DNA of 64,000 nucleotides from Octopus sinensis. Its lineage: Eukaryota. The notes beneath the pieces were generated by a model that did not search any database, was not told the DNA's origin, and saw nothing but the letters and a program-made list of their open reading frames with translations. The DNA is taken from contig NC_043001.1 of the NCBI RefSeq assembly GCF_006345805.1, positions 12,152,001 to 12,216,000 on the forward strand, read 5' to 3'. Both the position numbers and the translations under genes were made by a program. Position 1 is the first letter of the stretch. Each line of letters opens with the position of its first letter. Of the stretch, positions 4,679 through 64,000 are shown in pieces.

Positions 4679-6336
4679 ATGTCCCCTAAGAAAATTCGTA
4701 GCGAAGGTGCTAAGCGTCATGCTATAACGCTGGAAGATAAAATGGTTTAGGATAAAACGCCTTGAAAAAGGTGAAAAATAGGTAACAATTGCACAATGTT
4801 TAGGGATGAGTCTGACAACTGTATCGACGATTGTATATAATAAGGACAAAAGTTTAGCACATATGAAATCTGATGCCCCAGGGATGAAGAAGGCTGTGAT
4901 CAATAAGAAAAGAAGCAACATTTTTGAAGAAATGGAAAATGTTCTTTCTCTTTTGATTGTCGTGTTTAATCTTCAGTTTGCTATAATTCAAGAGTAATCA
5001 TTGTCTTTGTGTGAGGAACTGAAGAAAAAATATACAGATGAGAAAGATGTAGAGTTCAAAGCAAGTCAAGGATGGTTCAGGAGATTTAAGGAGCGAAGTT
5101 ATCACTCCATTAAGAAGCAAAGTGAAAGTGCATCAGCTGACGAAGAGGCAGCCGTGGAATTTCCTAATGCATTAAAGAAAATCATCGAAGAAAACGCGTT
5201 TCTTCCAGAAAATGTTTTTAACGTAAACGAACTGAATTGTATACGAAAAAATTGCCAGACCGTTCATTCACTTCTAATAAGGAGAAACCTATTCCAGGTT
5301 ATAAGTTCTCAAAAGAAGGTATGACCATTATGTTGGAAGGTAATTGTGCAGGAGATTTTAAGTTAAAGCTATTGCTTGTGTATCATGCACACAACTGGTG
5401 TGCTTTGAAAAACATACCCAAAGCATCTCTCCCTGTTATATGGATGGCTATTACAAAAGCATGGGTTACTGTTCTTGTTTTGGAAAATTCTCCAATCATT
5501 ATATCCCAGCAGCAGAGACGTAAAGAGATTTTACTTATCTTAGATTCCTTTTAGGGATTTATTTATCTTAGATAATGCTCCTGGCCACCTGCAAAACATC
5601 GTAGATTTAGAGACCCCAACGTTACCATCTTATACCTCCCTCTGAACACCACGTCTCGTCTGCAGTCAATGAAACAGGGAATCCTTGCTAGCTTCAAGCG
5701 TTACTATATGAAGCGTTCGTTGGGTCAATCAATAGCTGCAACTGATCTTGATGAGTCCATCCCATTTTGTGACTTTTAGAAAAGATACGATGTCTATAAG
5801 AACATAGCAGCGGTATGGAATGATGCACAGAGTACGGCTATGAATGGTCTTTGGAAGAAGTTTTGCCTACAATTAGTGAATGACTTTAAGGCGTTTAATT
5901 ATGTTGCCATCAACAAAACGTTGGTGACTACGAGCAAAGAACTGGAAATGGATTTGGAGGAGGAGGAGGAATTCACAGATTTATTGGGAAAAGTCGAACA
6001 AGGATAAAATAGAGATTCACGAGCAACAAAATAAAGAAGAAGAGGAATTCGAACCTGAACCATGTCACTTTGCCATTAAGAAAATGTAGCAAGCGTTTGA
6101 ATATATCGAAAAAGGTTTTTCTATGTTCGAGGACATGGATGCAAATGCTAAACGCATTTCTAAGATTATGGCGGCTTGTCATGAAACTTTTGCACTTTAT
6201 GATATAATCCTTGAGGAAAATAAATAAGACAGTTCAAGGAACTCTCAACCATTATTTTAAGCGCATCGAACAACAAGAACAGCCAGAATCAGCTGCTGAT
6301 ATTGACGATGCACAGCCATCTACATCCGCGATGTAA
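4679..6336 (+). pseudogene. Tigger/pogo (CENP-B HTH + DDE_1) transposase pseudogene
   Basis: ATG at 4679 (MSPKKIRSEGAKRHAITLEDK). Motifs FKASQGWFRRFKER, ESASADEEAA, VFNVNE, GDFKLKLLLVY, LDNAPGH and LPLNTTSRLQSMKQGI lie across several frames with stops and frameshifts; TAA at 6334-6336. Confidence 0.9.
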
Positions 6337-8260: not shown

Positions 8261-8677
8261 TACTCTTTTACTCTTTTACTTGTTTCAGTCATTTGACTGC
8301 GGTCATGCTGGAGCACCGCCTTTAGTCGAGCAAATCGATCCCGGGAGTTATTCCTTGTAAGCCCAGTACTTATTCTATCGGTCTCTTTTGCCGAACCGCT
8401 GATGACGGGGACGTAAACACACCAGCATTGGTTGTCAAGCAATGCTAGGGGGACAAACACAGACACACAAACATATACATACACATACATACATACATAT
8501 ATATACATATATACGACAGGCTTCTTTCAGTTTCCGTCTACCAAATCCACCCACAAGGCATTGGTCGGCCCGGGGCTATAGCAGAAGACATTTGCCCAAG
8601 ATGCCACGCAGTGGGACTGAACCCGGAACCATGTGGTTGGTTAGCAAGCTACTTACCACACAGCCACTCCTGCGCCT
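8261..8677 (-). mobile_element. tRNA-headed SINE family A, full length
   Basis: Head ggcgcaggagtggctgtgtggtaag...ggttcagtccc (A/B-box-like), internal TA/TG microsatellite, (gtaaaaga)n tail. Matches copies at 9522, 42329 and 57291. Confidence 0.9.
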
Positions 8678-9521: not shown

Positions 9522-9683
9522 GGCGCAGCAGTGGCTGTGTAGTAAGTAGCTTACTTTCTAACCACATCGTTACGGGTTCAGTCCCACGGCATGGAGCCGT
9601 AAGCAAATGTCTTCTACTATAGCCTCGGGCAGACCAAAGCATTGTCAGTGGATTTGGTAGACGGAAATTGAAAGAAACCCTTC

Positions 9684-23967: not shown

Positions 23968-24083
23968 TATACGATGGGCTTCTTTCAGCTTCCGACTACC
24001 AAATCTACTCACAATGCTTTGGTCGGACCGAGGCTATAGTAGAATACAGTTGACACTTGCCCAAGGTGCCACGCAGTGGGACA
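23968..24083 (-). mobile_element. SINE family A fragment
   Basis: cttctttcagcttccgactaccaaatc...cacttgcccaaggtgccacgcagtgggac. Confidence 0.75.
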
Positions 24084-26199: not shown

Positions 26200-26610
26200 A
26201 AGGCGGCGAGCTGGCAGAAACGTTAACACGCCGAGCGAAATGCGTAGCCGTATTTCCTCTGCCGTTACGTTCTGAGTTCAAATTGCGCCGAGGTCGATTT
26301 TGCCTTTCATCTTTTCGGAGTCGATAAATTAAGTCCCAGTTACGCACTGGGGTCGATATAATCGACTTAATCCCTTTGTCTGTCCTTGTTTGTCCTCTCT
26401 GTGTTTAGCATCTTGTGGGTAGTAAAGAAATAGGTATTTCGTCTTGCGTTACGTTCTGAGTTCAAATTCTGCCGAGGTCGACTTTGCCTTTCATCCTCGA
26501 TAAATTATGTCCCAGTTACGCACTGGAGTTGATGTAGTGGACTTGAACCATTTGTCTGTCCCTGTTTGTCCCCTCTATGTTTATCCCCCTGTGGGTAATA
26601 AAGAAATAAA
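26200..26610 (+). mobile_element. SINE family B dimer (head-body-tail1-body-tail1)
   Basis: Junction aaagaaataggtatttcgtc at about 26425-26445; aatactct on both flanks. Confidence 0.9.
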
Positions 26611-29054: not shown

Positions 29055-29810
29055 TTCAAATTCCGCCGAGATGCACTTTACCGTTCATCATTTCGGGGTC
29101 GATAACGTAAGTACCAGTTGCGTGCTGGCGTCGATGTAATCGACTGGCACCCTCCTTAAAAATTCCGGTCTTTGGGCCTAGAGTAGAAAAGTAAGGAGGC
29201 AAGCTGGCAGAAATGTTAGAACGCCGAGCGAAATGCTTAGCAGTATTTCGTCTGCCGCTACGTTCTGAGTTCGAATTAAACCGATGTCGACTTTGCCTTT
29301 CATACTTTCGGGGTCGATTAAATATGTGCCAATTACGCACTGGGGTCGATGTAATCGACTTCGTCCGTTTGCCTGTCCTTGTTTGTCGTCTCTGTGTTTA
29401 GCCCCTTGTGGGTAGTAAAGAAATTGATATTTCGTCTGCCGTTACGTTTTGAGTTCAAATTCCGCCGACGTCGACTTTGCCTTTCATACTTTCGGGGTCG
29501 ATTAAATATGTGCCAATTACGCACTGAGATCGATATAATCGACTTAATCCGTTTGTCTGTCCTTGTTTGTCCCCACAGTGTGTAGCCCCTAGTGAGCAGT
29601 AAAGATATAAGAAACGTTAACACGCTGGGAAAATGTTTAGCGTTATTTCGTTTGTCTTTACGTTCTGAGTTCAAATTTCGTCGAGGTCGATTTTGCTTTT
29701 CATCCTTTCGGGGTCGATAAAGTATGTACCAGTTACGTATTAGGGTCGATCTAATCGACTGTCTCCCTTCTCCACAATTTTGGGCCTTGTGTCTAGAAGA
29801 GAAAAGGATA
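29055..29810 (+). mobile_element. Cluster/multimer of SINE family B units
   Basis: Four body units with tail 1 and tail 2 variants in direct orientation. Confidence 0.85.
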
Positions 29811-32530: not shown

Positions 32531-33886
32531 ATGAAGCTGATGGAAGGAAGGGCTGGAGTTTTCGAGTCTTTATCAGACTTGTCTACGTCTGAGAAGGAGC
32601 TGGAAATGGCAGCGAGGAAATTGGAAGAGAGACTGGGTTATACCTGTGCCGGTGTAACCAAGAAGGCGGAAGAGAAGGGGGTCGACTTGGCCAAGTTGCC
32701 AAGTTGCCAGAAATACATGAAAAAGTAAAGCGGTGAGGTGGAACTATCACCGACACCCAGGAGAAAAGAATGGTATCATGGGGGGACCATTATTTGCAGG
32801 GTGTTCGCAAACGAAGGAAAGAGGGTGGAAGTTGTTACCATGGAGTGGATAGGGGAGGCCCTGCGAGGAACTGAGGAGGAAATTAATTTTCTGACTCGAG
32901 GATCCAAGTGGGGTGCCGTAGTTGTGCATTTTAAAAGTGAGTCTGCAGCGAGGAAGATGGCGGCGAAGGCGGTGAAGTCAGAAAAGGTAACACTGTTACC
33001 TACGTATTTAAACAGAAGGATTACACGAATAAGGGTGGAGGGAGTGCCACCAAACGTGGAGGCAGAGTGGATTGTGGCGGCTGTGATCAGCGGCCACGAG
33101 GAGGAAGTGGATATTCTCCATGCCTCGGTTAAGTCCGAGGGCTGGAGAGGCGTAACAGTGGAGCTGAACGTGCAGGCGGAGAACGAGGTACTGGTGGACC
33201 TGGCGGAAAGCATCAGATTGGGAGACGTGATCATGAGAGTGTGGGTGGAGGGCAGAGCTCCACGTTGTTACAAGTGTGGCCTGAGGGGTCACATAAGAGC
33301 CTTCTGCCCTCCCCCAGGGAAAGAAATGGATTCCGAACCACAGAGAGAGAAGCAGAAACCAGAGGAGAAGGAGACAGTAGAAGAGGAAGAGAATACACAG
33401 AAATGGAAGGAAGCTGGAAATAAGAGGAAGAGAAGAATACGAGGAAAAGAAAACATGGAACACCAATCTACCCCAAAACCACCCACACCCTCTGAGTCCC
33501 ACCCTATCCATGCAGACATTGAACCCACCCGCTCCCCCCCAACAAGAAAACAAAAGAAAAAAAATAATACACACACACAAGAGATTGAATTCGATATCAG
33601 GCCGTACATTTGTACTATGACTGAACAGAAAGAAGTTAAAAGTCTAATGGAAGAGTATAAATGGTACGAAGTTGGTGAGACTCGGTATGCTGTGATTGAA
33701 AAGAAGAACATAGATGAGTTTATGGTGAGGTGTGAAAGGGAGAATTGGGAGGTGAAGGATATAAGAATGAGCGATGAATTCGTGGAAAATATGGATGAGT
33801 ATTTCGGAGTAAGAATGGATATGGAATTTATTCGTATTGGCAAAGAACATTCAAGTGACGATGAAAAACAAAGGACAGGTAAGTGA
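32531..33886 (+). pseudogene. Non-LTR retrotransposon ORF1/gag-like protein with CCHC zinc knuckle (one in-frame stop at 32726-32728)
   Basis: ORFs 32531-32728 and 32738-33886 are in the same frame. The protein has an RRM-like segment (RIRVEGVPPNVEAEWI), VWVEGRAPR-CYKCGLRGHIRAFC (CX2CX4HX4C, 33266-33307), then a basic/Pro-rich region, as in L1/Tx1-group ORF1s. Confidence 0.8.
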
Positions 33887-42328: not shown

Positions 42329-42680
42329 GGCGCAGGAGTGTCTGTTTGGTAAGTAGCTTGCTAACCAACCACATGGTTCCGGGTTCAGTCCCACTGCGTG
42401 GCATCTTGGGCACGTGTCTTCTGCTATAGCCCCGGGCCGACCAATGCCTTGGGAGTGGATTTGGTAGACGGAAACTGAAAGAAGCCTGTCGTATATATGT
42501 ATATATATATATAAGTGTGTGTGAATATGTTTGTGTGTCTGTGTTTGTTCCCCTAGCATTGCTTGACAACCGATGCTGGTGTGTTTACGTCCCCGTAACT
42601 TAGCGGTCGATTTGCTCGACTAAAGACGGTGCTCCAGCATGGCCGCAGTCAAATGACTGAAACAAGTAAAAAGAGTAAAA
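42329..42680 (+). mobile_element. SINE family A with internal deletion
   Basis: Head and tail as in the other copies; lacks the aaagagaccgatag...cctgggg segment. Confidence 0.88.
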
Positions 42681-44666: not shown

Positions 44667-45267
44667 TATTTCTTTACTACCCACAAGGGGCTAAACATAG
44701 AGGGGACAAACAAGGACTGACAAACGGATAAAGTCGATTATATCGACTCCATTGCGAAACTGGTATTTTATTTATCGACCCCGAAAGGTTGAAAGGCAAA
44801 GTCGACCTTGGTGGAATTTGAGCTCAGAACGTAACGACAGACGAAATACCTATTCCTTTACTACCATCAAGGGGCTAAACATAGAGGGGACAAACAAGGA
44901 CAGATAAACGGATTAAGTCGATTATATCGACCCCAGTCCGAAACTGGTATTTTATTTATCGACCCCGAAAGGTTGAAAGGCAAAGTCGACCTTGGTGGAA
45001 TTTGAACTCAGAACGTAACGACAGACGAAATACCTATTCCTTTACTACCCACAAGGGGATAAACACAGAGGGGACAAGCAAGGACAGACAAACGGATTAA
45101 GTCGATTACATCGACCCCAGTGCGTAACTGGTACTTAATTTATCGACCCCGAATGGATGAAAGGCAAAGTCGACCTCGGCGGAATTTGAACTCAGAACTT
45201 AACGGCAGACGAAATACCGCTCCGCATTTCGCCCGGCGTACTAACGATTATGCCAGCTCGCCAACTT
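44667..45267 (-). mobile_element. SINE family B trimer
   Basis: One head (about 45215-45267) and three body+tail1 units of about 183 bp; tgtgtgtatata on both flanks. Confidence 0.92.
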
Positions 45268-45756: not shown

Positions 45757-46752
45757 GCAGAATGAGTTCCATTCCACGAAAATATAAGATAATTTATTAC
45801 GAAAGAGGACCGTAAGCAGATCAATACACCCACACACACACACATAGCATTTGGGGAATTCAGTTTTGTGATGGTAATATTCATAGAATAATGGCTAAAC
45901 TCAACATGATTGAAAACACGTACGTGCAGAGAGATGCCTACATCGGTGTCCTTACAAAGTAAGAGAAATTTATAAAAACTTAATATAGAATCTAGGTAAG
46001 AATACGTAGGCGTTTATGCTTCATTTCAAGTCAAACGAATTCTTTGTGAAGAGACTGAACAATTAGGAGAAATTCTTCACGTTCAACAGCCTGCGATTAG
46101 TATACATTCTAATGAAAGGTATGTCATTTAGTGCTGCACTTCATAGAAAGGCATTGGATGTAGCCGTGCCAGGTCATAGGAACGTTGTCTACATTCAGCC
46201 AGGTAAATTTTAATATACACAAAGAAAATATACTCCTAATTCATTTTTCTGAATAATTTCTTCCCTCAGATGGCGTATGACTGAATTATGTATGTGTATA
46301 TGTATCTCTGTGTGCCACTCTCTTTCTCTCTCCCCACCTCTCTCTCCATATATATATACACATATATATATATATATACTAGCTCTCTCTTTATCTCTTT
46401 CTCTGCCTCTCTCAGTCTCTCTCTCTCTATAGAGAGAAACATTTATATTTATATACACTCACATACACATATAAATATATATGTGTGAGTGTGTGTATGT
46501 ATACATACATGTATATATACTAATATATGTGTACAAATATACACACACACGCGCACACGCACACACACACGCACACCATATATATATATATATATATATA
46601 TATGAAAGTTTCCTTTCATTTTCCCTCTACATATAAGGACTTGGTTGGCCTAAGGCTACAGTAGAAAACATTCGCCCGAGATGCCACATAGTGGGACAGA
46701 ACTCTGAACTATGTTGTTAGTAAAAAAGCTACTTATCAGGCAGCCACGCATA

Positions 46753-46785
<33 letters not shown>

Positions 46786-46793
<8 letters not shown>

Positions 46794-47093
46794 GAAAGAA
46801 TGGAGTTAAACGACTTCTCCTGATGAGAAGGCGGCATAATGCACCCCTTATTTCTTCGAAATTATGGAATATGCAGCCTTCGAAACATGTGTCGAGAATA
46901 AAGGAATTCTGTTAAATCGTCGTTCAACTCCATTCTTTCATTTATTTGTATTAAAAAACACACAAATTTCCACACGAAAGCTCGTGATCTCTGCCCTTGG
47001 CATGTAGCTTCAACCGTGTTTTTCTGACGTGAATTTGCTACCCAGGTATCGGTTAACCGAATTATCCATACTAAGATAATTCATTCAACTACT
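46786..47093 (+). mobile_element. Short non-coding PLE/retrozyme-like module between two (TA)n tracts
   Basis: Hammerhead flanked by a 29-bp inverted repeat (46786-46814 / 46919-46947, one mismatch); (TA)n on both sides. Confidence 0.7.
46815..46898 (+). ncRNA. Apparently intact type-I hammerhead ribozyme
   Basis: ttctc-CTGATGA-gaaggc(g)gcata...tatgc(a)gccttc-GAAAC-atgt-GTC-gagaa. Complete catalytic core, GUC cleavage triplet, perfect stem I, strong stem II, near-palindromic stem III, then AATAAA. Confidence 0.85.
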
Positions 47094-47105
47094 TATATAT
47101 ATATA

Positions 47106-47200
<95 letters not shown>

Positions 47201-47773: not shown

Positions 47774-48178
47774 AGGCAGTGACCTGGCAGAATTGTTAGC
47801 ACGCTGGGCGAGATGCTTAGCAGTATTTCGTGTGCCGCTACGTTCTGATTTCAAATTTCGCCGAGGTCGACTTTGCCTTTCATCCTTTCGGGGTCGATTA
47901 AATAAGTACCAGTTACGCACTGGAGTTGATATAATCAGCTTAAGCCGTTTATCTGCCTTTGTTTGTCCTCTCTGTGTTTAGCCCCTTGTGGGTAGTAAAG
48001 AAATAGGTATTTCGTTCTGAGTTCAATTTCCGCCGAGGTTGACTTTGCCTTTCATCCTTTCGGGATCGATAAATTAAGTACCAGTTACGCACTGGGATCG
48101 ATGTAATCAACTTAATCCGTTTGTCTGTCCTTGTTTTTCTCCTCTATGTTTAGCCTCTTGTGGCCAATAAAGAAATAT
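47774..48178 (+). mobile_element. SINE family B dimer with 15-bp TSD
   Basis: TSD gaattaacaatttaa at 47759-47773 and 48179-48193 encloses both units. Confidence 0.92.
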
Positions 48179-55610: not shown

Positions 55611-56505
55611 TGATACGATAATAATATCTTAATGCGATTTGTAATATTTATTACGTAAACACCTTATTTTATTCTCGTTTCCTATATTAAATTACGGATG
55701 ATAAATTCGATATTAAACGTTTCGTAGTATTTCAGTATTTATTAGGGTATACATACAAATATAAATACACTCCGATATATCAATATATAATGATTAATTT
55801 TCTATATATTATGTTTCAGCAAGACACATTCTAAAATAAGATACGTTTTATGTATACTGTTACGTACTTCATTATATAATTTACATTCATTTTCATTTAT
55901 TTCAACAAATATTTCCTGTGTTTACAATATATATGAATTCTATAAGAAACACAGTATGATTTGATTTATAAGCATAAATCATGCACTTCATATCATTTAC
56001 AGTGGAAAAATCAGTAAATTTTGGGGGCGATATATCTCAAGGAAGATTAGAGAAGCAAGCCAAAGTTTTAATATATATCATATCGGGTTCTCAGTGGCAC
56101 AGAATTTATTCCATATATTTATAAAACAACCAACACCTTATGTGTTTCAGTTTTTATCTTCAGTCGTTGTCTCCATTGATATCATACTTGAAATGAGTCG
56201 AAATATGCTATAAACGTTGATATAATGATTTCATAATTACAAAATAAGACGAAGCAATTAGCAAGTATGTATTCAATTAATGGTTTTCGTGAAGAATTCG
56301 TCACGAGGAACGCTCACGAAATTATAGTTACTTCAGTTCATCAGGGAAAATGTAATTAATAAATTACCTGAACAGATTCCACGCTTTTTACACGCTAAGA
56401 AAACGATCATCAGTCACTACCATCCTGCAGACGCAGCACCCTTGCTGCCATAACCCACAATGTTATTAAGCGCCCCATGATGGGAGAGCACTGACCGATA
56501 TATCT

Positions 56506-56921
56506 TATTTCTTTACTGCCCACAAGGGGCTATACATAGAGGGGACAAACAAGGACAGACAAACGGATTAAGTCGATTATATCGACATCAGTGCGTAACT
56601 GGTACTTATTTAATCGACCCCGAAAGAATGAACGGCAAAATCGACCTCGGCGGAATTTGAACTCACAACGTAGCGGCAGACGATATATCTATTTCTTCAT
56701 TACCCACAAGGGGCTAAACACAGAGAGGACAAAGAAGGACAAACAAACGGATTAAGTCGATGACATCGATCCCAGTGCGTAATTTGTACTTAATTTATCG
56801 AACCCGATAGGATGAAAGGCAAAATCGACCTCGGCGAAATTTGAACTCAGAACGTAACCGCAGACGAAATACGGCTACACATTTCGACCAGCGTGCTCAC
56901 CTTTCTGCCAGCTCGCCGCCT
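56506..56921 (-). mobile_element. SINE family B dimer with ~15-bp TSD
   Basis: ctgaccgatatatct (56491-56505) / ctgacgggtatatct (56922-56936). Confidence 0.88.
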
Positions 56922-57290: not shown

Positions 57291-57690
57291 GGCGCAAGAG
57301 TGGCTCTGTGGTAAGTAGCTGGCTTACCAACCACATGGTTCCGGGTTCGGTCCCACTGCGTGGCATCTTAGGCAAGTGTCTTCTGCTATAGTCGCGGGCC
57401 GACCAATGCCTTGTGAGTGGATTTGGTAGACGGAAGCTGAAAGAAGCCTGTCATATATATGTATATATATATGTGTGTATGTGTGTGTATGTTTGTGTGT
57501 CTGTGTTCGTCCCCCTAGCATTGCTTGACAACCGATGCTGGTGTGTTTAGGTCCCTGTCACTTAGCGGTTCGGCAACAGAGCCCGATAGAATAAGTACAG
57601 GGCTTACAAGAATAAGTCCCGGGGTCGATTTGCTCGACTAAAGGCAGTCAAATTACTGAAACAAGTAAAAGAGTAAAAGAGTAAAGAGTA
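57291..57690 (+). mobile_element. SINE family A, full length
   Basis: Same structure as 9522-9960. Confidence 0.9.
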
Positions 57691-60246: not shown

Positions 60247-63200
60247 CTAGCAGCATAGCCCGGCGTTGCCCGGGTATGTAAGAGCCCCTAGTAGGCAACG
60301 ACTAATCCCAATGTAGTCCTTTCCCTCCAGGGAACGAAGGTGCATGTGGACGTTGCAATGTCTTGTCTTCACTGGAATACTTCTGTATATACGATGTTCC
60401 TAGCTGTCCGTTTGGGCGAAAACATGAAAACATCATTGCGCCTCCCAACGCGTGAACAGCCCACGTAGAGTTGACCGTGGGCGAAGCACTGTTCGCCCAA
60501 ATGTAACCCAGCGACTTGTAGCGTTTGGCCTTGGGATTTATTGATGGACATTGCGAAGCAGAGTTTAACAGGAAACTGAGAACGCCTGAAGTGGATTGGT
60601 AGGTCAGCGCCCGACGGTTGAAGGTGCATCCGTGGAATGAAGACGTCCTCTCCCTTCCCACAACCGGTAAGTATTGTGGCCGTTATTAAATGTGGTGCCA
60701 AATGTTTCACAACCAAACGTGTGCCGTTGCACTGTTTAGGTGGAACCAAATTCCTGATGAGCATAATGGGCGCACCGACTTTTAACTTCAGGATGTGTGG
60801 TGGCAGGCCTGGCGGTTCAAGTGAATTCAGGAATTCAACAGGATAATCGGCAAGCTGGGCGGGGTCTGCTGTCCTATCTATAGATTTGTAGACGTGGACA
60901 TCACCAGGAATAGCTTCAAGTAGCTGGATATTGATGGAGTTGACGGTTGTAGTTTTGGGTGCGAGAATAGCTCTGCCTGCCAGCCATTTTAGGTCGCGTA
61001 AATTGTTTTGTAGGTCGTGGAAGACAGCGTCCCGGAGGCTAGCAGGGGTGTCGACAATGGTGCAAAGTGAGTCCATTTGAACGTAGCCATCCGCATCAGA
61101 CAGCATCCTATTTTCACCGAGCAATAAGAGGTCCCTGGAGAATGCAGCGGATCCGCTGTCACCAATTAACTGCGCGCGCATGTTAGTTTGGAGGTGCAAG
61201 GGCCGCACATGTGCCCAAAGAGCTGACGACTTAAGGCACGCGCGCACGGCATCGGCACGGGTTCCTTTTGGAATAACAGGTAGAGTCTGCCTGAAGCCTC
61301 CTGAAAGAAGTAAAGTTAATCCTCCCATGGGGGCCGTAGAGTCTTGCAGGGACCTGTCCAGTGCCTCAAGGGCGCCTTTGTGTGCCATAGTGCACTCGTC
61401 CCATACGATGAGTTTGCATCTGCGCAGAATGTCGGCCTGTTCTGAGTTCTTGGCGATGTTGCAGATAGGTGACTCGGACTTTGCCAGATCGAGCGGGAGT
61501 CTGAAGGCAGATGGGCGGTTCTGCCACCCGGAAGCAACGTGGCCGCGATACCAGAGGAAGCTACAGCCAGGGCAATGTCCGTGTTGCGTCTGACCTCTGC
61601 CAGAATTAGTTTAGTGACGAAGGTTTTGCCAGTGCCGCCGGGTGCATCAAGGAAGAAAATCCCCCCACGTTGCTGTCTGACAGAGTCTACGATGGTGTTG
61701 TAGGCTATGCGCTGGTCTGGAAGCAGCCGTGGTTCATTATCTTGGACGTACTGGTGCAGTTCCTCAATGCAGTAGGAAGTTTCGCGTAACAATTCAGCAG
61801 ACATAACATTGGCGTGTTCACGTGTGGGTGGTGGAAGGCCGTACTCTGTTAAAGCAGACCCACCCATATCGATGACAGCGTCTTCGAGTTGAATGAGCGC
61901 AAAATTGTAAATGAAGTTGGTGAACGTGATCTCGGCGGAAGGGCAGTGTTGCTGAGCCGTACGTAAGAAGTCGTGCGACATGTCATCCCTGTATTTCATC
62001 CAGAGACTTAGTGGATCACTAAGCTGACATTTTTGAAGAAGGATTGCGAAAAGATGTCGTAGGGCCGAATGCGTTTGCAGTAAAGCACCCTCTGCCATCG
62101 TGGCGTCCCACTGGGAGTTATCCTCTAGAAGGCCAAGTCTCATACATGCTTCCCTGAAGGTGTCGCACAGAACCCCATTGACGGTACGTATATTGGCGAA
62201 ACCTGTTGGACCAGTGACCTCATGTAGAAGGAGACGGAGGTAGAAGCATTCTTGCTGGTTTGGCGGGATGTTGTAAACTCGACCCAGGCAGGAGTCAAAC
62301 TTGACGCCTGGGAAGCTTTCGACGTTTTTGCCGGATTTCCGTCGAACCCAGGTGTTTTTAGACCACACGAAGTACGATGGGACCTGTGGGTACAAAAGCG
62401 TTCGAGCGAAGTCATCACGTTGGCATAATTTGAAGAAACCAGTCAACGTTGTGTCTTTAGGGCTGGTGGCTATCTGCACAGCACTTTGCTCTGTGAAGTA
62501 AATCTGCTGTCCATTTTCCAAGTGTACAGCAAGCTGTACCACAGCCGGGTGTCTCTGATGGAGCGGGAAGCCGTAAATGCGCCAAAACGCTTCGTTGCTG
62601 CTGAGGTACCGGCCAGCCAAGTAGTTGGACACTTCGTCGCGACTGGTGGTCCTCTGGATGCTGAACATGGCAGCATCGCTGCCTTTGTTGATATATTTGC
62701 AGACATATTGTATTGACCTGATGGAGCTGCAGAACTCAACGTTGACGTGGGCTTTGAATATCTTCGACAGGAGAGGACAGTAGGGGACAATGTAGCTGTT
62801 GTCCACTTGATGTCGCCCAACCGTAATCGTGCGGCCTCCATTGGCTGGACTCCTTCGTTTGTACAGCGGATACCCATCGCCGCCTGTTTGAGTCTCCAAA
62901 GTGAACCGTTTAGGAATCCCTTTGAGCAGGCTAATCCGTTTTTGTAGCATGGTGTGTTGGCGTAATTTGGTCCACAGGGCCCGTGTACCATGGTAGTGCG
63001 GACAATTTCGTAGAGTCCGGGGTCCTCATCGGGGTCAGGAATCTCGGCGGAAATGAATTTGTCAATGTCATTAGTCTCGATTTTATGAGTGAGCCAAATT
63101 AAGATGTGAGCATGTGGCAAGCACCTCTTTTGCCACTCGACCGAAAAATGTGGCACCTGACATGCCCGAAAATCTGACTCTTAACTATCAAATCCTTCAT

Positions 63201-64000
63201 TTTGCCCAAATTCAGACGGAAAACCCTAGCAACGATGTCGTGTCGATGGGTGTGAGATTGACCCGGGAGGAGTTCGCGAGTGATTTCGTCGCAGCTGGGA
63301 TTGCACGTGTAGGTGATAAAGAGGTCCGGCCGGCCGTAAATGCGCACGTAGGTCAAGGCGTCTTGGGTCCTTTCACGCATATATCGCGGTCCTCCCGTGA
63401 AGGTGGAGGGTAGAATGCATGGCTTGCCGATGTTGCGAGGGTCATTTTCTTGTTGCAAACCGTCACGGAGATGATGAATGTAGGGTCGGAGCGAAGTTTG
63501 GTCTGATTAAGTTTAATGTATAGCAGCCTTTCCGATTCCATTTTTGCGGCCATATCGACGGCGAACTGGTTGAATAGCTGACGACAACGGGGCAATAAGT
63601 TGAACTCACCCTCCCTGACCATGAACCGGTATGAGTAGAACGCCCTGCAGGAAACCGTCTTTGATGCCGCAGTAGTTTGATTGGAGGGCTGCCGTAAAGG
63701 AATTCCGAAGTGGTAGCCGTCTTCCCCATAAGGGAAAAGCAATGGATAGTGAAGCGCGTCATAAGATCTGTGAGTCTCGCTGATCCTGTGTAGGTTGTTA
63801 CCACGGGAGGAGATGATTATGTCACGGCTGTTGTGTTGCTCTCCGTGTATAACTGCGGCAATTTCGTTGCACGCAGGTGCGTTGAAACGGCGTTCGTGCT
63901 CCCCGTGGGGTCGTTTATCAGCATCAATGACAACGGTGAAGTTTGGAGATGGAGCACTGTCCAAGGCATATCTGAAGCTGCAGACGTAGCTGTTGATATC
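60247..64000 (-). mobile_element. Autonomous-type Helitron, running off the right edge of the window
   Basis: 3' end: hairpin cccgggcaacgccggg then CTAG at 60247-60250, next to T. Carries RepHel coding sequence. Confidence 0.95.
60369..64000 (-). pseudogene. Helitron RepHel (HUH Rep + Pif1 SF1 helicase), frameshifted
   Basis: Rep motifs PDLFITYTCNP, VEWQKRCLPHAHIL, YVCKYINKG; helicase motifs DAPGGTGKT, IVWDECTM, GGFRQTLPV, FAMSINKSQGQT, HGQLYVGCSRV. Split over five ORFs by frameshifts near 63480, 63150, 62930 and 61515. Confidence 0.93.

Follow-up and report, generated by a model that had tools for sequence, protein, structure and literature searches.

Locus organization

The window (the whole 64,000-nucleotide stretch of Octopus sinensis DNA analyzed here) has animal-like sequence with many microsatellites and transposon pieces. 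In it lies a 308-bp unit (46786-47093) that contains a type I hammerhead ribozyme motif, the two arms of an inverted repeat, and a long tail, and that occurs once in the window (Table 1). A sequence-only reading had placed the unit inside a (TA)n tract, which was borne out on both sides. The same reading had called the unit free of ORFs; this holds to the extent that its longest ATG-started frame has 47 codons.

Table 1 Features of the hammerhead unit and its flanks, in window positions
Feature	Position	Strand	Basis or remark
(TA)17 tract, left side of the likely target	46757..46790	.	Repeat annotation
Inverted copy of 46919-46947, 29 bp	46786..46814	-	28/29 pairs; likely an inverted piece joined at insertion
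Hammerhead ribozyme motif, type I	46815..46898	+	Descriptor match, Rfam alignment, fold prediction
Large loop II region	46839..46869	+	Differs between copies; part can pair with the stem II side
20 bases unpaired in the window copy	46899..46918	+	Pairable with the upstream strand of other copies
Right arm; outer end likely the start point of inverted pieces	46919..46947	+	Contig joints
Tail, 146 bp, at one end only, hairpin-terminated	46948..47093	+	Contigs and fold
Block resembling the Naiad_Obim and Naiad_Ovul 3' ends	47030..47067	+	By eye, suggestive
(TA)n then (AG)n, right side of the likely target	47094..47200	.	Repeat annotation

Other repeats surround the unit. Its left neighbor (46604-46747) is another short repeat with at least five further copies in the window, often adjoining (TA)n (8524-8667, 9531-9683, 24019-24083, 42338-42481, and 57300-57412). 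A SINE-like repeat of 172–184 bp forms tandem runs in both orientations around the hammerhead unit (26250-26608, 29244-29605, 44667-45218, 47841-48177, and 56496-56871). Farther away are a Helitron-like region spread over several frames of the minus strand (60369-63506; PIF1 helicase E = 6.6e-30 and 1.1e-20), with a G+C content of about 50% compared with 36% elsewhere, a 385-codon open frame with a weak zinc knuckle that resembles a retrotransposon ORF1 (32729-33886), and broken pieces of a Tigger/pogo-type transposase (4782-6004; DDE_1 E = 8e-09). We rejected two other candidate features. A SINE was considered for the unit itself from a B-box-like 9-mer at 46922, which occurs 13 times in the window, and neither a tRNA gene nor an A box was found with it. 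Matches from a sigma-70 promoter scan were at chance level, and such a promoter is inapplicable to an animal.

Hammerhead motif

Core and stems. All of the core nucleotides claimed by the sequence-only reading were present at its coordinates (CTGATGA 46820-46826, GAAA 46882-46885, and GTC 46891-46893, read on the sequence). Stem I (46815-46819/46894-46898) pairs at 5/5 positions as the claimed ttctc/gagaa helix, and for stem II (46827-46838/46870-46881) we obtained the same count of 11/12 pairs. Stem III (46885-46892) is near-palindromic and of the dimer type, as had been proposed: read on the sequence it pairs with itself at 8/8 positions, two of them G-U, and the computed energy of this self-duplex is -6.0 kcal/mol. 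The three helices enclose the core with helix I open, and stem III has one or two pairs in the monomer. Within loop II, fold prediction indicated that 46849-46854 can pair with 46866-46871, which would compete with the last pairs of stem II. We take the predicted cut to fall after C46893, following the established hammerhead numbering. An AATAAA that had been placed directly after the cut is indeed near it, but starts at 46897, three bases past the cut and within stem I. With 69 occurrences of AATAAA on the same strand of the window, its use as a poly(A) signal found no support.

Descriptor and Rfam searches. The type I descriptor gave a single match across both strands of the 64-kb window, and a relaxed descriptor found no second site there. 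Any descriptor match appeared in 2/300 block-shuffled windows. The proposed Infernal check against the Hammerhead_1 model had a mixed outcome. In a search of 106 bases, model positions 1-45 of 45 in RF00163 aligned at 26.4 bits (E = 5.8e-05), which falls under the gathering score of 34 bits, and wider searches on 651 bases and on the full 64 kb did not detect the hammerhead. Relative to the model the core is intact, all 45/45 positions are shared, and a 51-base insert stands in place of loop II.

Pattern scans of other DNA. We recovered 13 loci from scans for the DNA pattern in two sets of viral contigs (one and zero loci), two sets of metagenomes (zero and 11), and prokaryote genomes (one). 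None was related to the unit beyond the 20-base pattern itself, which was in L013. Four of the 11 metagenome loci (L002 at 1693-1770, L004, L008, and L009) share one sequence that is unrelated to the octopus unit. It contains both core halves and a 4-bp stem II without an ordinary stem III or cut site, and had no Rfam match at E values up to 1.

Repeat family in sequencing runs

Contig matches and divergence. Parts of the 308-bp stretch were found in 20/24 listed public sequencing runs (8 studies, 4 organisms), the best of which contained 0.61 of its words. None of the listed runs containing the stretch has an RNA origin on record; one of them, X7, may be RNA. At an alignment threshold of 80% likeness, at which joints from other repeats are possible, 2,860, 2,098, 1,435, and 145 contigs aligned to the stretch in runs X1, X2, X6, and X7, respectively, and all 30 bins were covered in 4/4 runs aligned. 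The listed contig pieces had 2–17 differing letters per 70–150 bases. At 46853 and 46982 the window copy departs from nearly all contigs and at 46909 from most of them, and it also shows small indels; other copies are missing the base at 46865 and have extra sequence after 47069. The stretch is thus a diverged member of a high-copy DNA family, and because it differs from most contigs, the window copy is one aged copy among many.

Variation in the ribozyme. Among the variants listed, 0/19 positions in the core and stem III had a variant at a frequency of at least 5%, compared with 38/289 elsewhere (p = 0.076). This scarcity is a weak, not significant sign of conservation, and reading covariation of core and stems is limited by the fact that contig variants cannot be linked on one molecule. 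Loose contig ends had TG, TA, or CG at the center of stem III, all of which stay self-complementary, and C or A at the cut position, both of which are permitted. We did not count the stem III variants as covariation because CpG decay alone gives the same set. In stem I, 46896 G>A occurred at 13–16% in four runs and could be offset by the upstream strand of other copies, although the two are not linkable on one molecule.

These data also bear on whether the hammerhead is a chance arrangement within an ordinary repeat. Such an origin would agree with the score below the Rfam cut-off and with the nonsignificant scarcity of core variants. The rarity of matches in shuffled windows, the full-length RF00163 alignment, and the loose-end variants that preserve both stem III self-complementarity and a permitted cut base make it highly improbable, and we conclude that the hammerhead motif is real.

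Inverted repeat and contig joints

The 29-bp inverted repeat noted earlier is present. It is not a clean continuation of stem I because the 20 bases between stem I and the right arm have no partner in the window copy.

Joints. Eight contig joints were listed, each from one contig and with a short side of <30 letters in 5/8; six are skips and two connect opposite strands. Five of the six skips start at 46796, 46802, 46806, 46811, and 46814 and land at 47000, 47016, 46916, 46963, and 46912, respectively. This clustering of starts within 46796-46814 has a binomial p of about 7e-06 if starts were uniform. When placed on the right arm, the five skips are inverted pieces of 11, 17, 21, 26, and 29 bp followed by direct copies that start variously. 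The opposite-strand joints are at 46899 and 46910, and the eighth joint is a 33-base skip within the tail. Therefore 7/8 joints connect an inverted piece of variable length to a direct copy with a variable start, and across other copies the inverted pieces span 11–49 bp with differing junctions. The direct copies start only downstream of the cut in 7/7 cases, a result short of significance (p = 0.09). With its 29-bp inverted piece followed by a direct copy from 46815, the window copy agrees with this series of joints. Internal deletions within a fixed element could also produce such joints.

Upstream sequence. Before 46818, 16 contigs in X1 and 16 in X2 have loose ends with other sequence, and the claim that 46786-47093 is a whole element accordingly found no support. 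The inner part of these loose ends can pair with 46899-46918 in a duplex of -9.4 kcal/mol, a value reached by 0.8% of 25,592 window 20-mers. In the family, the upstream strand of other copies is thus predicted to extend stem I. The outer part, which is poorly supported, appeared by eye to be unlike the left arm. The idea of the inverted repeat as a functional clamp also found no support, since other copies differ in its length and junction, and since in fold predictions the stem I pairing probability falls from 0.81 for the hammerhead alone to 0.17 when the inverted repeat is included.

Right arm and tail. In each of the four runs, contigs span the junction of right arm and tail, which shows that these parts go together in the family. 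The summed depths of TA-bounded arm ends and of arm-to-tail junctions are of the same order, a pattern that suits a fixed element just as well. The tail terminates in a hairpin (47059-47066/47075-47082). In other copies the hairpin loop contains a CUGANGA half core without a stem II (14, 12, 3, and 1 contigs across the four runs) that could be a relic of a second hammerhead. In X7, some contigs join the arm or tail (46920, 46952-47019) to unrelated upstream sequence, including a 255-base loose end, and the tail may therefore be common to other families.

Fixed element or DNA transposon. We weighed these data against a fixed non-autonomous mini-element in which both arms are native and pair into a rod some 50 bp long that is capped by the hammerhead. 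Such a rod would keep the cut halves together for re-ligation or read-through, a Penelope-like element (PLE) protein would copy the element in trans, and the window copy would have an internal deletion before stem I. Cleavage products are predicted to stay bound by about 29 kcal/mol (-84.6 vs -56.0), each of the four runs is rich in TA-bounded arm ends, and the termini are inverted at 12/16 positions, a level matched by 84/127,968 window 16-mers. The rod also has a z-score of -6.4, but this is expected of any inverted duplication. We consider a mini-element unlikely given that the junctions differ between copies in 7/8 joints, that by eye the upstream strand of other copies does not reach the left arm, and that the inverted repeat lowers predicted stem I pairing in the window copy. 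The inverted termini and the TA on both sides would also suit a MITE-like DNA element with short terminal inverted repeats, TA insertion, and a captured hammerhead. This is very improbable: the strong 29-bp repeat is not terminal, variable starts and inversions are a retrotransposon pattern, and a 2-bp duplication would be unreadable within (TA)n.

Comparison with Penelope-like elements

Insertion pattern. The 308 bp are probably the 5'-truncated 3' end of a (TA)n-targeting PLE carrying its type I hammerhead, and the 29-bp "clamp" is likely a scar or by-product of insertion. Parts of PMC8557442 describe PLE insertions as 5'-truncated and biased toward (TA)n, with an inverted copy, itself truncated, at the 5' end and a tail on one side. 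Truncation with an inverted 5' piece was observed here in the 7/8 joints, one contig each, and insertion into (TA)n in the flanking tracts and TA-bounded contig ends. The one-sided extension of 146 bp departs from the PLE tail of 30–40 bp. A Pfam scan of 10 window ORFs did not find a PLE family, and none of the short ribozyme-region strings located in the portions of the Craig consensus files (PMC8557442) covered could be extended by eye.

If the unit is such a truncated 3' end, a PLE reverse transcriptase/GIY-YIG endonuclease protein would have nicked the (TA)n tract and the element RNA would have been copied from its 3' end with an early stop at stem I (46815). Sub-terminal sequence (46947 to 46919) would then have been joined to the 5' end as a short inverted copy, producing the 29-bp repeat and leaving the tail at one end only. 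Two copies are predicted to pair via stem III and to be cut after C46893, trimming long precursor RNAs of the parent. Copies that retain the ribozyme, the window copy included, would likely come from uncut RNA because a cut inside the unit separates the ribozyme from the 3' end.

Hammerhead architecture. Parts of PMC4209133 describe PLE hammerheads as mostly single motifs with a long helix II, a helix I of 4–5 bp, and a palindromic helix III, and File S2 of PMC8557442, likewise covered in part, has 26 hammerhead rows for the Hydra clade with a short stem I and a short self-complementary stem III. From what those portions of the two papers describe, the window unit shares with PLE-end hammerheads the type I arrangement, the 5-bp stem I, the G10.1-C11.1 pair, the short self-complementary stem III, a position near a (TA)n-bound 3' end, dispersed single copies, and an inverted piece at the 5' end. 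By our own arithmetic the hammerheads in the Hydra-clade rows covered lie about 30–350 nt from the 3' end; here the distance is 49 or 195 nt. Stem II and its loop total 55 nt in the window, which is longer than in any Hydra row in the portion of File S2 covered, and the sequence differs from the octopus Hydra-1_Obim hammerhead as given in part of PMC8557442. The window motif also lacks the extra base between 9 and 10.1 typical of minimal PLE hammerheads, with stem II directly after the core, and the unit differs from EN+ PLEs in its 146-bp tail and in that no ORF was seen. The earlier proposal of a full dimer-type hammerhead in a non-coding, PLE-related mobile repeat agrees with the motif, the family, and the insertion pattern. 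The unit is predicted to work like a PLE-end hammerhead and shows the insertion pattern of PLEs.

Retrozymes. The unit had also been called retrozyme-like, and this fits loosely. As a solo monomer of a non-LTR retrozyme, it would derive from tandem arrays elsewhere that are transcribed, cut by the hammerheads to unit-length RNAs, circularized, and re-inserted. The portions covered of PMC7229834 and bioRxiv 10.64898/2026.07.22.740005 describe animal non-LTR retrozymes that, like the unit, are non-coding, about 300 bp, type I, and linked to PLEs; the unit's size is inside the 170–400 nt range in the former, and solo monomers are common in retrozyme families in the latter. In contrast to retrozymes, the boundaries of the unit vary among copies, no tandem copy was found in the window, and 0/8 listed joints run end-to-start, although contigs are no proof of absence and such a joint would be masked by a TA spacer. 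A circular fold adds no half-to-half pairing (-79.9 vs -83.0 linear). We regard a retrozyme monomer as improbable.

Predicted folding and cleavage

In fold predictions, the active fold of the monomer lies 4.7–5.4 kcal/mol above the ensemble. Because stem III has so few pairs in a lone hammerhead, poor cleavage is predicted, and because stem III is self-complementary, cleavage would need a dimer. This predicted behavior matches that of the dimer-type motifs of metazoan PLEs. In the part of PMC4209133 covered, one PLE hammerhead monomer tested showed no cleavage and dimers cleaved at a low level; in that of the retrozyme preprint (bioRxiv 10.64898/2026.07.22.740005), 1/9 dimers cleaved. The window copy itself is probably a passive relic that would be weakly active at most.

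Resemblance to Naiad

Compared by eye, the block 47030-47067 runs collinearly with the final 130 bases of Naiad_Obim and Naiad_Ovul, with 13/16 bases identical at 47036-47051, and among about 15 PLE 3' ends covered only this near-identical pair matched. A comparison of 46976-47012 with the Naiad 5' end (22/36 by eye) was weaker still. With a hand scoring that was chosen after the match was seen, 5–15/1,500 random pairs reached the score of the family form and 33–85/1,500 that of the window copy. Under strict scoring 243–687/4,000 reached the score, and 1,295–3,994/4,000 did so under lenient scoring without a length limit. The resemblance is thus suggestive, a lead only, and not significant under strict scoring.

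In the sections of PMC8557442 covered, a half hammerhead core is flagged for Naiad_Ovul, and the window family shares with the octopus Naiads the (TA)n target and a short collinear resemblance near the 3' end that includes the half core, which other copies of the family carry in a hairpin loop. The same sections report Naiads without canonical hammerheads, whereas the window unit carries a canonical motif, and describe those in cephalopods as old remnants. The stem that encloses the matched block in the Naiad ends is not predicted in the window unit. We entertain as a doubtful proposal that the family is Naiad-related or Naiad-mobilized and that, upstream of the Naiad-type half core, it acquired a full canonical hammerhead whose stem I is extended and whose stem II domain is unusually large. 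If true, this would contradict the rule that canonical hammerheads are missing from Naiads, and would provide a natural pair, with the same 3' end with and without a ribozyme, in which to ask whether hammerheads have a role in PLE replication or take a parasitic ride.

Significance

Many animal genomes are known to carry hammerheads at PLE ends, in thousands of copies, and one more such family is therefore unsurprising. Among the papers listed in literature searches, no title or abstract opening described such a cephalopod family; the repeat library of PMC13282606 and entries in Repbase or Dfam may already contain it. An octopus repeat annotation assigns 6.83% of the genome to PLEs (PMC13282606, in part), and the word "ribozyme" is absent from the portions covered of its main text and one supplement. 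What hammerheads do in PLEs is described as still unclear in part of PMC8557442. The family to which the window copy belongs is high-copy and common to several organisms, with truncation and inversion points around the ribozyme, and assembly of its copies could consequently test whether they break at the cut site.
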